Part shown: positions 26,289 to 32,000 of the stretch, one piece after another
Position numbering within the stretch: position 1 is the first letter of the stretch
How the letters are laid out: every line of letters begins with the position of its first letter
Notes under the pieces: generated by a model
Told to the model about the DNA's origin: nothing
The model's input: only the letters and a program-made list of their open reading frames with translations
Database searches by the model: none
NCBI RefSeq assembly: GCF_000179635.2
Contig: NC_014833.1
Span: 2,130,001-2,162,000 of the forward strand
DNA length: 32,000 nt
Source of the DNA: Ruminococcus albus 7 = DSM 20455
Lineage (GTDB): Bacteria; Bacillota; Clostridia; Oscillospirales; Ruminococcaceae
Direction: 5' to 3'
Position numbers and translations under genes: made by a program

Positions 26289-26723
26289 TTATACTGTCAA
26301 CGACAACATTCCTAAGGTCAACAGTATGATACGGAGCTCGCCGTCACCGTCAAATGTCCTGATGTTGTCGTTGATGAAGAAAACCTCCACACCCAGCCTT
26401 TTCAGGTCACGGGTGTATTGCAGAGTGTCCACTGTGTTTCGTGCGAAACGTGATACCTCACGGGTCAGTATCAGATTGAAGTCGCCGTTCTTTGCATCAC
26501 TGAGCATCTGCATGAACTGCGGACGTTTCTTTGCCGAAGTTCCCGTGATACCCTCGTCAACATAACTGCGGACGAATGTCCATTCAGGATGCTGTTCAAG
26601 CAATGGCTTGTACCAGTCCAGTTGATTCTCCAGAGCCGAAAGCTGAGCTTCGTGCTCGGTGGAAACTCTCGCATAAATGACCACATTCTTCGGCACAGCC
26701 ACCGCATTATATCCGTACATCAT
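26289..26723 (-). pseudogene. large serine recombinase truncated to the N-terminal catalytic (resolvase) domain
   Basis: VVIYARVSTEHEAQLSALENQ...DEGITGTSAKKRPQF...LILTREVSRFARNTVDTL... ends at ...DGELR and then runs 13 unrelated codons to a stop. The recombinase and zinc-ribbon domains (~350-400 aa) are missing. Confidence 0.8.
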
Positions 26724-27162: not shown

Positions 27163-27654
27163 TTATTGTTTTTCCAGTTTCAGCAATTCTATCTTTCTAT
27201 CAAGACCGCCTGCGTATCCGGTCAGACTTCCGTACGCACCGATTACTCTGTGACACGGGATAATGATCGAGACAGGATTATGCCCCACAGCACCGCCAAC
27301 TGCCTGGGCGGACATACGCTCCACACCATTCTGCTCTGCTATGATATTGGCGATCTCGCCATAGGTCATTGTCTGTCCATATAGTATCGTAAGTAGAATA
27401 TCATATACCGCCTTGCGCAACGGTGTTGTATTCAGGTTGATAGGAGGAATGAAGTCGGGAATGTTGCCGCTGAAATATATGTCGAGCCATTTGACTGTCT
27501 GCTTGAAGATAGGCAGCTCTGATTCGATGCTTTCCGATATGAGTTTATGGGGAAAGTATTTCTGTTCGTCGAACCATAAGCCTGTGAGTGATTCGCCGTC
27601 ACTGGCGAGGGCGATAACACCTAGGGGAGAATGATAATGATAGATATAGTCCAT
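27163..27654 (-). CDS. ogt: methylated-DNA--protein-cysteine methyltransferase
   Basis: The active site IPCHRV is present, followed by ...GSLTGYAGGL..K..LL..E. Start chosen at MDYIYHY (27654), because the longer ORF would overlap the upstream gene. Confidence 0.9.
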   Translation of the reverse strand: MDYIYHYHSPLGVIALASDGESLTGLWFDEQKYFPHKLISESIESELPIFKQTVKWLDIYFSGNIPDFIPPINLNTTPLRKAVYDILLTILYGQTMTYGEIANIIAEQNGVERMSAQAVGGAVGHNPVSIIIPCHRVIGAYGSLTGYAGGLDRKIELLKLEKQ

Positions 27655-27664
27655 AGTTATTTGA

Positions 27665-28129
27665 TTAATGAAAACGAGAAAAATCTGTACACAAGTATTT
27701 TTCAAATTGCTTCTTACAGTATTCTCTTTTTTCGCCTGTTGTCTTATCAGTTCTATTACCGTTAAACCAGATACTGTGCTTACCTTTGTTCTTTCCGTTC
27801 TTATTTGTTACACACTCATTAAGGAATTCCTCAGAGGACATTATCCACATTGAATCAAGTCGTTCAGAGTAAAAGACAAAATAGAAATTAGGAGTCAGTT
27901 CATGTGTAATGGCTGCAAATAGTGCAGCATCCCCATCGGCTACTTCATTTGATCTTGCTTTTATTTGTATCTCGATAAATTTTCCATCTGCTTTTTTGAT
28001 AACACAGTCTACACCATGATCATCAACAAGAGGAAGATAAACATCCAAGCCTTCCATTAGCATTTTACCAACAAGGTTATATTCCATACGTTTTCCAAAG
28101 CTTGCAGAGTCTCTGAATGAGATACCCAT
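27665..28129 (-). CDS. PD-(D/E)xK nuclease-fold protein (Hjc / I-Ssp6803I-like core), 154 aa
   Basis: G..E..L...L...G..VYLPLVDDHGVDCVI....GKFIEIQIKARS matches a D...(E/Q)xK core. GGGGG lies 9 nt before the ATG. The gap to ogt is 10 nt. Confidence 0.6.
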   Translation of the reverse strand: MGISFRDSASFGKRMEYNLVGKMLMEGLDVYLPLVDDHGVDCVIKKADGKFIEIQIKARSNEVADGDAALFAAITHELTPNFYFVFYSERLDSMWIMSSEEFLNECVTNKNGKNKGKHSIWFNGNRTDKTTGEKREYCKKQFEKYLCTDFSRFH

Positions 28130-28721: not shown

Positions 28722-29405
28722 ATGAAAATACTTGTTCTGAACGGCAGTCCCAAGCATGAAAAAAGTGACACGATGCACATAACACGAGCGTTCCTTGACG
28801 GCATGAAAGAAGCCGCTCCGCAGGAAATCCGTATCGTTGATATCATCGACAAGCATATCGAATATTGCACGGGTTGTTTCACCTGTAAGCGGAACGGCGG
28901 AAAGTGTATCCATAATGACGATATGAAGGAGCTTCTCAGCGAAGTTCTTGAGAGCGATCTTCTGCTGTTCAGCTATCCGCTTTACTGCTACGGAATGCCT
29001 GCGCCGATGAAAGCTTTTGCTGACCGCACGATGCCGCTTTCAAGTATGGCAATGAAGAAGCAGGGCGACAGGTATGTTCACGTCGGGCAGGCGAACTTTT
29101 CACATCTGAAATTCATGATGATCTGCGGCTGCGGATTCCCGAACAGCAAGCAGAATTTCGAGCCTGCGGTCATGCAGTTCAAGCTGATGTTCCCGAATAA
29201 CCATACTATCATTACCGTTCCCGAAAGTCCGATGTTCAATGCCCCCGAAGCAGCAGAGGTAACTGTTCCGAGATCAGAACTTGTGAAGCAGGGTGGAAAG
29301 CAGTATGCAGAGACAGGCGAAATAGATGAAAAATTGCTTGCGGAGATATGCTCGCCTATGATACCCGAAGATGTGTATGCGGAAATCTGCAACAAAGAAA
29401 TGTGA
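28722..29405 (+). CDS. flavodoxin-family / NADPH-dependent FMN reductase-like protein (iron-sulfur flavoprotein type)
   Basis: MKILVLNGSPK...S.T begins the protein, with Cys cluster CTGCFTCKRNGGKC and ...LLLFSYPLYCYGMPAPMKAF.DR. GGAAGGAG RBS. Confidence 0.8.
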   Translation: MKILVLNGSPKHEKSDTMHITRAFLDGMKEAAPQEIRIVDIIDKHIEYCTGCFTCKRNGGKCIHNDDMKELLSEVLESDLLLFSYPLYCYGMPAPMKAFADRTMPLSSMAMKKQGDRYVHVGQANFSHLKFMMICGCGFPNSKQNFEPAVMQFKLMFPNNHTIITVPESPMFNAPEAAEVTVPRSELVKQGGKQYAETGEIDEKLLAEICSPMIPEDVYAEICNKEM

Positions 29406-29412
29406 AACAAAA

Positions 29413-29452
29413 AACACGGACAGCCTTTTATGCAACGGCTATCCGTATTTTT
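29413..29452. terminator. hairpin terminator between convergent genes
   Basis: Stem acggacagcc...ggctatccgt followed by attttta, with aaaaaa on the 5' side. Confidence 0.65.
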
Positions 29453-29864
29453 AATCTATCCAGTAACATCTGAAGTTCCAGTCAGCATCCCAGCGTGCGT
29501 CTATAAAATGCCCACGCATAAAACGTTTATTTGAAAAATAAACAGCTATAGACATATCATCAATATCCATGGTAAAAGAGTCGAAAACTAATTCAGATCT
29601 CATTTGTTCAGGAGACGATACATCGTTTTTATCAACTCCGTAAAAATCGTAGAATTCTTCTCTCAACATCTCATTGACAAGTTTCTCTGCATTCTGCACA
29701 GCATATCTCAGCTTGTCGTAATAGATGTCAATAATCTTCTCCTCGAAATCTTCGGTATATCCCTTACGAGTATACATAAAGTAAGGATCCGGATCGGAAT
29801 AAGCCGAGAGAAACCTGCTGTTTCCATGAATTATACTGTTTATATGATCCTTATCCAGCTTCAT
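29451..29864 (-). CDS. hypothetical cytoplasmic protein (137 aa), immunity-protein-like composition
   Basis: AAGGAG lies 6 nt before the ATG. It has its own promoter on the minus strand: TTGACT (29932-29937), 17 nt, TATGAT (29909-29914). No assignable motif. Confidence 0.6.
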   Translation of the reverse strand: MKLDKDHINSIIHGNSRFLSAYSDPDPYFMYTRKGYTEDFEEKIIDIYYDKLRYAVQNAEKLVNEMLREEFYDFYGVDKNDVSSPEQMRSELVFDSFTMDIDDMSIAVYFSNKRFMRGHFIDARWDADWNFRCYWID

Positions 29865-30020
29865 ACGAACTCCTTCTTTCTTGCTTTTAAGCTTCTTGTA
29901 CTTTTTATATCATAGCACATAACACCGAAAAAGTCAATCGTTATTACAGCGCAATGTACCGGGGAAAATCCACTTTTTGCTGCGCATTTCACAAGAATTA
30001 TTACAATCATTTCAATGTGC

Positions 30021-30049
30021 TGGACTCCGATAGTTTTGTCGGATATAAT
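30021..30049 (+). promoter_or_regulatory. sigma-A promoter of the small-protein/SSB-like operon
   Basis: TGGACT (30021-30026), 17 nt, TATAAT (30044-30049). Confidence 0.6.
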
Positions 30050-30083
30050 GGATTCACGATAAAACTTATGGAGGTACACAACT

Positions 30084-30293
30084 ATGTTGAAAACACCTGA
30101 ACTGGCAATGCCGAGAACGAACAAGGTCACTACCGTCTGCAACGGAAAGCGTGAGGTCTGGACAGACTATGAGGAAGCAAAAGTATATTTCCTGGAACTT
30201 ATGATGTCCACGGACGGTGAGGAGCACGAACGTGCGGAGTGCGTATACATTCAGCTCATGCACGTACTTGACGATTGCAGTGACGTGGACTGA
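30084..30293 (+). CDS. small acidic hypothetical protein (69 aa), mobile-element type
   Basis: GGAGG lies 9 nt before the ATG. It is followed within 15 nt by the SSB-like gene. No motif assigned. Confidence 0.55.
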   Translation: MLKTPELAMPRTNKVTTVCNGKREVWTDYEEAKVYFLELMMSTDGEEHERAECVYIQLMHVLDDCSDVD

Positions 30294-30308
30294 AAGGAGT
30301 AGTAAACT

Positions 30309-30638
30309 ATGCTGAACAAAATAATGATGACAGGACGTATCACCACCGATCTGACCGTTGTAACCGAGGATAATTACAGCTACTGCAAATTTTGCATTGC
30401 AGTAGACAAGCAAAAACAAAATAGCATTGATACCATTGAGACAGATACGTTCACCTGCATTGCCTTTGATGATAATGCTAAATCAGTAAGTTTTCTCTAC
30501 TCAAAAGGTGGGATTATTACATTTGTTGGTTCGCTCAGGAAGGCACCTGACAAGTCAGTAGTTATCATCGTGGAGAAACTGCACTTCCAGAATAGGTTTG
30601 CAGTCAAAGTAGACGTTGATTCGGGACAGCTTTTCTGA
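30309..30638 (+). CDS. short single-stranded DNA-binding (OB-fold) protein lacking the acidic tail
   Basis: MLNKIMMTGRITTDLTVV... is an SSB-type N-terminus (compare MLNKVILIGRLTKDPEL). 109 aa, with no Gly/Pro-rich linker or DDDIPF tail. Confidence 0.6.
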   Translation: MLNKIMMTGRITTDLTVVTEDNYSYCKFCIAVDKQKQNSIDTIETDTFTCIAFDDNAKSVSFLYSKGGIITFVGSLRKAPDKSVVIIVEKLHFQNRFAVKVDVDSGQLF

Positions 30639-30751
30639 CTAAACAGACGATCTACTAACATATAGCTGAAACAAGGCTCTCAGAGTGTTCTGGGGGCCTT
30701 GCTTCATATGGAGATTTTACTGAAACAACTGGAATTATAGCTTTTTATTCA

Positions 30752-30780
30752 TTGACATACGGTATGTAAAATGGTATAAT
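30752..30780 (+). promoter_or_regulatory. sigma-A promoter of the MazG-like/helicase operon
   Basis: TTGACA (30752-30757), 17 nt, TATAAT (30775-30780). Confidence 0.75.
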
Positions 30781-30819
30781 TTAAACAAATAATAGCTTTT
30801 GCTTTGGGAGCGTGATAAA

Positions 30820-31143
30820 ATGAGAGCAGTACATAACAAACTCGTCCGTGACAAGATACCCGAGATAATCGAAAAAGCAAGCAAGACAGCCTACACACAT
30901 ATCCTCTCCGACGAAGAATATATCTCCGAGCTAGACAAAAAGCTTGGCGAGGAATTTGCCGAGTATCAGGCTGACAAGAACATAGAAGAACTTGCCGATA
31001 TGTTGGAAGTTATGTATGCTATCGCCGAAGCAAGAGGATGGTCGGTATCTGAGCTTGAAGCTGTCCGTAAGTCTAAGGCTGAAAAGCGTGGTGGCTTCAA
31101 AAAGAAAATATACCTTGAGTATGTGGAGGAAGGAAATGAGTGA
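30820..31143 (+). CDS. all-alpha MazG-like NTP pyrophosphohydrolase (PRA-PH / COG4997-type)
   Basis: NKLVRDKIPEII... then ...KL.EE..E........EELADMLEV..A.. (an EExxE/D-type metal motif) ...KRGGF. GGGAG lies 9 nt before the ATG at 30820. Confidence 0.7.
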   Translation: MRAVHNKLVRDKIPEIIEKASKTAYTHILSDEEYISELDKKLGEEFAEYQADKNIEELADMLEVMYAIAEARGWSVSELEAVRKSKAEKRGGFKKKIYLEYVEEGNE

Positions 31144-32000
31144 AAGACTTGTAACGCCAAGTGGGAGCGCTCCCGAAAACCTGTTCATAGAACTTTTTTC
31201 GGACGCTTTCGGCGCTGAAAAAGCTGCGTTTCTTTATCCGCAGTACCACTTCACCGACATTTATCAGAATGACCGCTATGCTGATTTCTTCCTTGAAAAC
31301 GGCGGAAAGCGTATCGCTATTGAGATAGACGATGAAGCAAGTCATAACCCGTCGGTCGTGTCACGCAACAAGTTCTATGACGACCTGCTGAAACAAAACA
31401 GCATGATATTCAAAGGTTGGGACGTTTACCGCTGGGCAGTGCGTCAGTTGCAGGTACAGCCCGATACTGTCAAGGACGAACTGCGTATATTTCTCGGTTC
31501 GCACCCGCTGTTCCGTGAGATAGCAGATTATCTTCCCACACAGCGTTCCAAGACGATCAATGCCGAGAATTTGCAGCTGAAAGAGCATCAGCTTGCAGCT
31601 TTGAAGTCTCTTGAAGAAATGCGTGAACGTCATGAAACTATCGCTCTGTTATATCACGCAACAGGAACGGGAAAGACCGTTACCGCAGTCAGCGATGCAA
31701 AGCGGTTCGGCAAACGCACACTGTTCCTCGCACATACGATAGAGCTTGTAAATCAGGCTTATGAAACTTTCAATACTCTGTGGGATGGCGTTTATGTCGG
31801 TAAGTTCGGCGATGCTGTAAAGGAGAGAGATGCATATATCGTCTGCGGAAGTATCCAAAGTGTTGCACTCAATCTTGAAATGTTCCGTAAGGACGAGTTC
31901 GAGTATCTCATAATTGACGAGGCTCACCACGCTTCTGCCGATACATACCAGAAAGTGCTTGCGTATTTCAAGCCCAAGTTCACGCTGGGTCTTACAGCTA
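31136..32000 (+). CDS. Vsr/DUF559-like nuclease-fold domain fused to an SF2 DEAH (ResIII-type) helicase, 3' end outside window
   Basis: Not in the supplied ORF track because there is no stop in the window. My own translation from the ATG at 31136 is open for 288 codons. The N-terminus RYADFFLENGGKRIAIEIDDEASH...D.LLKQN.....GW.VYRW fits the DUF559 pattern. Helicase motifs follow: motif I ATGTGKT, Ia LFLAHT, II IIDEAHH, III LGLTA. The start overlaps the MazG-like stop by 8 nt. Confidence 0.8.
   Translation, partial: MSERLVTPSGSAPENLFIELFSDAFGAEKAAFLYPQYHFTDIYQNDRYADFFLENGGKRIAIEIDDEASHNPSVVSRNKFYDDLLKQNSMIFKGWDVYRWAVRQLQVQPDTVKDELRIFLGSHPLFREIADYLPTQRSKTINAENLQLKEHQLAALKSLEEMRERHETIALLYHATGTGKTVTAVSDAKRFGKRTLFLAHTIELVNQAYETFNTLWDGVYVGKFGDAVKERDAYIVCGSIQSVALNLEMFRKDEFEYLIIDEAHHASADTYQKVLAYFKPKFTLGLTA

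Follow-up and report, generated by a model that had tools for sequence, protein, structure and literature searches.

The closest described relative of the locus reported here is the type IV restriction enzyme SauUSI, in which a PLD nuclease is followed by a superfamily 2 (SF2) motor and a C-terminal SRA-like DUF3427 module. The paper on this enzyme noted that SauUSI and at least 60 homologues have a conserved gene for a MutT/Nudix pyrophosphohydrolase linked to them, and left the role of this gene unexplained (Xu 2011). The SauUSI-Nudix adjacency reappears in a figure legend of a later survey from 2020, and the later literature that we searched holds no explanation of the SauUSI-MutT linkage, which has been an open question since 2011. 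Here, we describe a compact two-gene cassette with its own promoter in Ruminococcus albus 7 (= DSM 20455), in which a second, unrelated pyrophosphohydrolase fold appears to fill the same slot beside a motor of the SauUSI lineage. It lies at the right end of a stretch of 32,000 nucleotides (nt; NC_014833.1, positions 2,130,001 to 2,162,000), referred to as the window throughout, and consists of open reading frame (ORF) 1, a predicted MazG-like nucleoside triphosphate (NTP) pyrophosphohydrolase, and ORF2, a nuclease-helicase of a family that is common in rumen and gut Clostridia. We propose, on the strength of sequence comparison, that the pair represents a type IV-like, ATP-dependent restriction enzyme together with an accessory enzyme that clears abnormal deoxynucleoside triphosphates (dNTPs) from the pool, a proposal to which we give an even chance of being correct. 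A literature search revealed no description of a MazG-like gene paired with a Vsr-type helicase, and no model of PADLOC 2.0 (2023 models) describes the pair. The preliminary description of this DNA, made from the letters alone, likewise did not recognise the pair as a named system; it had overlooked both SauUSI as its closest relative and the MutT linkage reported in 2011.

ORF2 was missing from the ORF list of the window because its reading frame runs past the window end. A scan of one genome per species yielded 64 related loci (L-numbers below denote related loci). The homologue search of the protein database returned only fragments of query-like length, and full-length copies were taken from the genome loci. 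Those at L004 and L002 share 95-98% identity with ORF2; the one used as reference is a protein of 753 amino acids (aa) from Ruminococcus flavefaciens YL228 (NZ_FPIP01000009.1, L004 10001-12262; 95% identical), in which a Vsr/MTES_1575-like nuclease is followed by an SF2 motor and two winged-helix domains. Pfam recognised ResIII and Helicase_C in this homologue and nothing in its last ~270 residues. Its best match in the PDB was SauUSI (7CLG, E 2e-53), aligned over about 340 aa (aa 152-491 versus 227-571), with RadD next (4e-34) and a type I R subunit further behind (2e-20), and its best PADLOC model was mREase_IV (PDLC03658, E 5e-55), which the window fragment matched as well (E 2.9e-22). Across 44 homologues there is no variation in Walker A, DEAH, motif III or motif VI; in ORF2, a GLTA motif lies at aa 285-288. 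These matches place the ORF2 motor in the lineage of the type IV restriction enzyme SauUSI, and the SF2 ResIII-type helicase predicted from the letters alone is borne out by Pfam (Table 1).

SauUSI and the ORF2 family thus share a homologous motor, flanked by a nuclease on its N-terminal and a DNA-binding module on its C-terminal side; both lack a cognate methyltransferase, and each is accompanied by a small NTP pyrophosphohydrolase in an operon-like cluster (Xu 2011). They differ in the nuclease, which is PLD in SauUSI and of the Vsr/MTES_1575 type in the ORF2 family, in the C-terminus, which is DUF3427 in the former and two winged-helix domains in the latter, and in the partner, which is a Nudix protein for SauUSI and usually an all-alpha MazG-like protein for the ORF2 family. 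Pfam found no PLDc domain in ORF2 or its full-length homologue and no DUF3427 in the homologue's C-terminus, and 7CLG was not among the 50 Foldseek matches listed for the C-terminal model. The pair has only one of the three defining domains of SauUSI and so falls outside this family in the strict sense; from these comparisons, it is best described as a putative new form of ATP-dependent type IV restriction that comes with a MazG-like accessory gene.

The N-terminal domain of ORF2 is predicted to adopt the restriction-endonuclease fold. When isolated, it matched PF18741 (REase_MTES_1575) with E 4.6e-4, below the Pfam cut-off. Among 14 diverse relatives of ORF2, all matched PF18741 (best 2.7e-6) and seven matched DUF559, in each case below the gathering scores; a profile of the nuclease domain (A4) found no match in the PDB. 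Residues D50, E63, D65, H70, K86-Q87-N88, G94-W95 and R99 are invariant and fall within or between the motifs ADFF (aa 49-52), IEIDDEASH (aa 62-70) and GWDVYRW (aa 94-100). The Vsr/DUF559-type nuclease proposed in the preliminary description is thereby supported across these relatives, though below the cut-offs, and the motifs on which its calls were based (D-F...IAIEIDD..H, GW.V.R, GTGKT, DEAHH and GLTA) are found where it had placed them. Hhe likewise joins a helicase and a Vsr/MTES_1575-type nuclease in a single polypeptide. Its helicase is of superfamily 1 and its nuclease is C-terminal, and the distinction from Hhe drawn at the outset holds: the ORF2 family has an SF2 helicase (ResIII plus Helicase_C) and an N-terminal nuclease. 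We rejected an identity with Hhe for these two features; no Hhe model was among the PADLOC matches listed for the window fragment or for the full-length homologue (best 25 of 33 for the latter).

The C-terminal module is encoded beyond the window. A confident AlphaFold model of this region of the homologue (predicted local distance difference test, pLDDT, 89) consists of tandem winged helices, which probably recognise the DNA target. Pfam gave only faint Exc/MerR/HTH_17 matches, and a C-terminal profile (A2) found nothing significant in the PDB. Foldseek, in contrast, matched the module to an AAA ATPase (E 8e-22) and a DUF262 protein (E 6e-19) encoded on one viral contig, each with a template modelling score of 0.80. 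These are BFVD entries A0A8S5PWP8 and A0A8S5PWA5 of Siphoviridae sp. ctg0K17, each of about 850 aa, with 44% and 31% identity; the models suggest a phage- or prophage-borne type IV-like system that carries the same tandem winged-helix module. In addition, hhalign found homology (96% probability, E 2e-9) between the N-terminus of a McrB-like protein in L133 and the second winged-helix domain. The N-terminus of the MazG-linked HNH nuclease described below reached 1-10% probability against the reader domain. L133 (2640-6577, +) contains a MazG-like gene, the 755-aa McrB-like AAA+ protein (McrB 6hz4, E 1e-4) and then a 401-aa gene. The ORF2 family resembles the modular enzymes of type IV (McrBC, GmrSD/DUF262 and winged-helix fusion endonucleases) both in its second winged-helix domain, with the McrB-like match, and in its C-terminal module as a whole, with the matches to the DUF262 (GmrS-like) protein and the AAA ATPase. 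It differs from them in its effector, an SF2 helicase motor in place of the McrB GTPase or DUF262 NTPase. In a published pattern, type IV sensors combine one DNA-binding module with various effectors, and winged helices are among these sensors. By analogy, the shuffling of the C-terminal domains would be typical of type IV sensors.

The MazG-like gene and the nuclease-helicase gene form one operon under a consensus promoter (Table 1). A scan of positions 29400-32000 found only this one perfect 12/12 site, which also has a TG extended -10 element (30772-30773). The identical perfect promoter lies at equal offset in six related loci (L001, L002, L004, L006, L007 and L055). Over about 130 nt around it (30680-30820), the window is 100% identical to its two closest relatives, L001 and L002, against 2-3% divergence in the coding DNA on either side, which points to regulatory constraint or recent recombination. 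In the Ruminococcus group the stop codon of the first gene overlaps the start codon of the second (4-5 nt by tblastn match ends in L001-L006, L008 and L052), and in most loci outside this group the gap between the two genes is 0-75 nt. The strong promoter, the 107-aa ORF, the 8-nt ATGAGTGA overlap and the long ORF leaving the window had all been noticed in the preliminary description and are all present.

Table 1. Features of the cassette at the right end of the window and of the left edge of the island that carries it
Feature	Position in window	Strand	Basis
Sigma-70-type promoter, TTGACA-17 nt-TATAAT (TTGACA 30752-30757, TATAAT 30775-30780)	30752..30780	+	12/12 score
Ribosome-binding site GGGAG, 9 nt 5' of the ORF1 ATG	30806..30810	+	read in sequence
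ORF1, 107 aa, predicted small all-alpha MazG/HisE-like NTP pyrophosphohydrolase	30820..31143	+	translation, family matches
Predicted metal-binding motifs E44-E45-x-x-E48 and E56-E57-x-x-D60 (through E63)	30949..31008	+	conservation
ATGAGTGA, ORF2 start overlapping ORF1 stop by 8 nt, translational coupling	31136..31143	+	read in sequence
ORF2, first 288 aa of a nuclease-helicase of ~753 aa	31136..32000	+	ATG at 31136, open to last base
Vsr/DUF559/MTES_1575-type restriction-endonuclease-fold domain (predicted), aa 47-117	31274..31486	+	Pfam, invariant residues
First (ResIII) lobe of SF2 helicase motor	31571..32000	+	PF04851, E 1e-32 on window fragment
Walker A GTGKT, aa 177-181	31664-31678	+	
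DEAHH, aa 261-265	31916-31930	+	
Truncated serine recombinase, N-terminal 144 aa, left island edge	26289..26723	-	Resolvase domain, E 5e-24

ORF1 appears to be MazG/HisE-like on several lines of evidence, which are individually weak but consistent. The acidic EExxE...ExxD motif of all-alpha NTP pyrophosphohydrolases is present: across 18 close and 76 distant relatives, E44, E45, E48 and D60 do not vary and E57 varies little or not at all, and E56 is kept in at least 90% of the close ones. PF12643 (MazG-like) matched ORF1 with E 1.5e-3 (19.1 bits, cut-off 27) and 12 of the 18 relatives (best 3e-4), and PRA-PH matched four of them. NCBI names the family 'nucleoside triphosphate pyrophosphohydrolase'. 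A broad family profile (A5) weakly matched the HisE/PRA-PH domain 7bgm (E 0.073) and, second best, the MazG-type pyrophosphohydrolase 5ie9 (E 0.31), while a profile of close relatives (A1) found nothing significant in the PDB; hhalign against a DCTPP1-like neighbour gave P 3e-4 and 41% probability. The AlphaFold model made from the single sequence consists entirely of helices, five in all, but is poor (pLDDT 57), and Foldseek returned no significant match for it, the best being E. coli MazG (E 2.3). Fusion proteins of the MazG family mostly lack a Pfam match, apart from one Ham1 and one nucleotidyl-transferase fusion. ORF1 has no regulatory or sensor domain and no match among the PADLOC models; it is presumably of the COG4997 type. 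In size and acidic motif it resembles the MazG/HisE superfamily, DCTPP1 and MutT/NudG. Within that superfamily its similarity to PF12643, PRA-PH and MazG stays below every curated cut-off, and its family is set apart from dNTP-clearing pyrophosphohydrolases by its linkage to nucleases, not housekeeping genes. The MazG/PRA-PH-like call made from the letters alone is consistent with these results, and Pfam support for it, as for the nuclease, is reproducible across relatives though below cut-offs.

The pairing was counted in the 56 genome loci with an assessable upstream region. A MazG-like gene on the same strand lies at most 100 nt upstream of the helicase in 41 of them and, with a small gene between, at most 500 nt upstream in another four; three loci (L039, L043, L044) have a MutT-like Nudix gene (NUDIX_4) in the MazG position, and eight have neither upstream. 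Because Nudix replaces MazG at the same position, the arrangement points to a needed activity rather than chance proximity. Another five loci combine a MazG-like gene upstream with a Nudix gene directly downstream of the helicase. When metagenome loci were anchored on the MazG-like gene, 28 of the 72 with downstream room contained the nuclease-helicase, at helicase identities down to 53%; the pair is thus kept beyond close relatives, a matter that the preliminary description had left to be checked.

The small genes that can separate the two partners occur in L034, L035, L047, L062, L081, L091, L098, L111, L113, L128 and L134. Two clusters of them (137-152 aa) carry GSIGE...QIKATQ and may have a mini PD-(D/E)xK fold, and the inserted gene of L034 and L047 is a different small ORF of 113-116 aa.

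True SauUSI-like genes adjoin the nuclease-helicase family in L005, L030, L035 and metagenome loci. In R. albus KH2T6 the operon reads MazG, Vsr-type helicase, true SauUSI-like protein (PLDc_2, ResIII, Helicase_C, DUF3427) and Nudix; PLDc_2 is present in the SauUSI-like paralogue of L005, and the order SauUSI-like, Nudix, MazG, small gene, Vsr-type helicase recurs in metagenomes. The MazG-like family also accompanies other nucleases, which makes the linkage general: besides the McrB-like protein of L133, an HNH nuclease of about 380 aa (cluster M3; motif DHFxP...DELWNL.P...N..K.N) adjoins the MazG-like gene in about 16 loci (L071, L072, L076, L077, L079, L082, L099, L101, L102, L106-L108, L110, L121, L141). 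A published classification of HNH nucleases contains a group linked to MazG genes, and the M3 proteins may correspond to these MazG-linked 'Group 23' His-Me finger proteins. The same islands hold a second, separate pairing, in which the gene after a Schlafen-like/DUF2075 helicase (PADLOC PDC-S41 type) encodes a DCTPP1/RS21-C6-like MazG protein (PDB 6sqw, E 9e-18; L089 25-673, L106 944-2850, L108 and L110; clusters M10 and M11); by analogy, this may be a comparable link.

On these grounds, we propose that ORF2 is an ATP-dependent restriction-type nuclease-translocase that would move along DNA and cut foreign DNA recognised by its winged-helix module, the target most likely being DNA with a base modification. 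A type IV-like attack on foreign DNA is suggested because a methyltransferase is lacking, the reader is shared with McrB-like proteins and viral DUF262 and AAA-ATPase proteins resemble the C-terminal module. ORF1 would fill the role of the MutT/Nudix gene beside SauUSI by hydrolysing non-canonical or modified dNTPs. The effect could be that the host chromosome is spared the mark that the nuclease attacks, that the phage is deprived of modified precursors, or both. A published account describes the MazG-family enzyme DCTPP1 as hydrolysing methylated dCTP and thereby preventing its misincorporation into DNA. More tentatively, and with the balance of probability against it, the arrangement may be a rule: type IV-like nucleases (SauUSI-like, Vsr-helicase, HNH and McrB-like) would routinely be partnered with dNTP-clearing MazG-like or Nudix pyrophosphohydrolases, the nuclease attacking modified DNA and the partner destroying the corresponding modified dNTP, with the pair of the window as the founding example of an undescribed family. 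If the partner does clear modified dNTPs, this would account for the ability of cells to carry modification-dependent nucleases without marking and then cleaving their chromosome, and it would add a nucleotide-pool arm to the defence against phages with hypermodified genomes.

Several observations weigh against this proposal. The assignments of both the Vsr-type nuclease and the MazG-like enzyme rest on matches below curated cut-offs. No solved modification reader matches the C-terminal module significantly; the best Foldseek matches of the module in the PDB are MukE/JetB-type tandem winged helices (E 0.015), with forkhead and ORC proteins among the other weak ones, so that modification dependence is argued from analogy and domain shuffling only. 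ORF1 seems dispensable in some lineages, since eight of the 56 helicase loci lack an adjacent pyrophosphohydrolase. Furthermore, many loci are not independent observations because the sampled helicases are mostly at least 66% identical.

The eight unaccompanied helicases also bear on an unlikely alternative, that two independent defence genes merely travel together, the helicase working alone and the MazG-like enzyme being self-sufficient, for example by destroying modified dNTPs of phages, with a tendency of its gene to settle beside nucleases in defence islands. The MazG-like family is very large (9486 representative clusters), and its presence beside the unrelated HNH and McrB-like nucleases would fit such autonomy as well. 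Independent genes would, however, hardly be expected to keep a fixed order and strand with a gap of at most 100 nt in 41 of 56 loci and overlapping stop and start codons in the Ruminococcus group, nor to share a single promoter that lies upstream of ORF1.

The preliminary description suggested the logic of nucleotide depletion. In such a pair the nuclease-helicase would sense an invader and the MazG-like enzyme would drain the (d)NTP pool, possibly helped by a dGTPase. dGTPases are known dNTP-depleting defence genes, and in L002 (12319-13572, +) and L055 (9725-10978, +) a homologue of dGTPase/dNTP triphosphohydrolase (PDB 2dqb, E 1e-35) directly follows the nuclease-helicase. L002 is the closest relative with downstream sequence (97-98% nt identity), so the locus of the window may continue into a defence gene of the dNTP-depleting type; in addition, MazG-like, Nudix and DCTPP1-like pyrophosphohydrolases accumulate in these islands. 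Among the roughly 50 loci with sequence downstream of the helicase, however, a dGTPase comes next in only these two, compared with a Nudix gene in five and a second helicase in four, the others being unrelated or convergent. An unregulated broad-range dNTPase behind a 12/12 promoter would be toxic, and ORF1 has no sensor domain that might restrain it and is unmatched by any PADLOC model. Its positional substitute, moreover, is a MutT-like Nudix protein, a class that clears damaged nucleotides and does not empty the pool. The coupling of a nucleotide hydrolase to a nuclease-helicase stands as described, while depletion, which we regard as improbable, fits less well than the clearing of abnormal dNTPs because ORF1 lacks a regulatory domain, is exchanged with MutT-like Nudix proteins and lies behind a consensus promoter.

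The pair sits in anti-phage defence islands of many gut Clostridia. Its neighbours in related loci are Wadjet (JetB, JetC, JetD), Azaca (ZacB, ZacC), DdmD, dGTPase, HsdR and the true SauUSI-like genes, together with the candidate systems PDC-S41 and PDC-S53 and a GajB-like helicase; that these neighbours are defence systems speaks for the reading of the preliminary description. The decayed mobile island that it had recognised is equally supported. Homology with the islands of L002, L004, L006 and L007, which retain a serine recombinase of about 576 aa, begins at position 26331 inside the truncated recombinase gene of the window (Table 1), so that the island integrase has been cut off in the window. 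Further genes of the island encode Ogt, a PD-(D/E)XK-like protein, a flavodoxin-like protein and a short SSB-like protein. A scan of viral contigs found no close relative of the helicase, and a plasmid search found only distant helicases, in ordinary restriction-modification contexts.

The Ogt and SSB-like genes on this island would suit a mobile module of DNA repair or surveillance, composed of a RadD-like helicase with a Vsr-like mismatch endonuclease and an antimutator pyrophosphohydrolase. Vsr cleaves at T:G mismatches, both MutT and MazG have antimutator activity, and RadD is the best NCBIfam match (NF053632, E 4.6e-16) and, for the full-length homologue, the second-best match in the PDB. 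The RadD score nevertheless reached 58 bits against a cut-off of 720, for which we rejected an identity with RadD, and SauUSI matched better by 20 orders of magnitude. The family is patchy yet highly conserved across Clostridia families, it lies among Wadjet, Azaca, DdmD and SauUSI-like genes, and several copies are pseudogenised, as is common for defence genes. It has a reader domain in common with McrB-like proteins, and a DUF262 protein resembles its C-terminal module, so that a repair function strikes us as quite improbable.

That ORF2 is an ordinary type I/III Res/HsdR subunit with its Mod gene just past the window is hardly credible: it has a ResIII domain and weaker HsdR/EcoAI matches, and distant plasmid homologues in Sulfolobus and Rhodococcus adjoin methylases, but the HsdR model TIGR00348 scored 17.8 bits against a cut-off of 284, the loci with downstream sequence show no recurrent methyltransferase cluster, and the genes that follow in L004 are a convergent DdmD-like gene and its partner. 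Among the neighbours of 63 loci, no methyltransferase formed a recurrent cluster, hidden Markov model scans having covered recurrent clusters only. We therefore rejected the Res/HsdR identity, and the recurrent downstream Mod gene against which the preliminary description had set its reading was not found in these loci.

Within the islands, some neighbours were located precisely. In L004 (12547-18044, -), convergent with the helicase, the DdmD-like gene (1145 aa, PADLOC E 2e-38) is accompanied by a 686-aa partner that may be DdmE; a DdmD-like gene is also present in L043, and ORFs of the same cluster occur in L029 and L054. JetB3 and JetC3 of a type III Wadjet system abut the MazG-helicase pair in L017 (4685-9672), L020 and L006; no JetD-like ORF was seen between them and the pair, the interval searched. 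Decayed copies of the nuclease-helicase show a frameshift in L044 (10001-12242), internal deletions in L058 (10010-11606) and L060 (9992-11281) and an insertion in L056; the protein database, too, contains many helicase fragments that lie on long contigs.

In the window itself, the Ogt ORF, which encodes an O6-methylguanine methyltransferase and has a TTG start that may be mis-set, shares 41 nt with the end of an ORF of 154 aa whose similarity to PD-(D/E)XK/DUF4365 is weak (27163-28129, -). Just 5' of the promoter lies the gene for the short SSB-like protein (109 aa, PF00436 E 1e-9; 30309-30638, +), which is conserved in Ruminococcus islands (cluster C11: L002, L004, L006, L055) and is followed on its 3' side by a hairpin at about 30674-30701.

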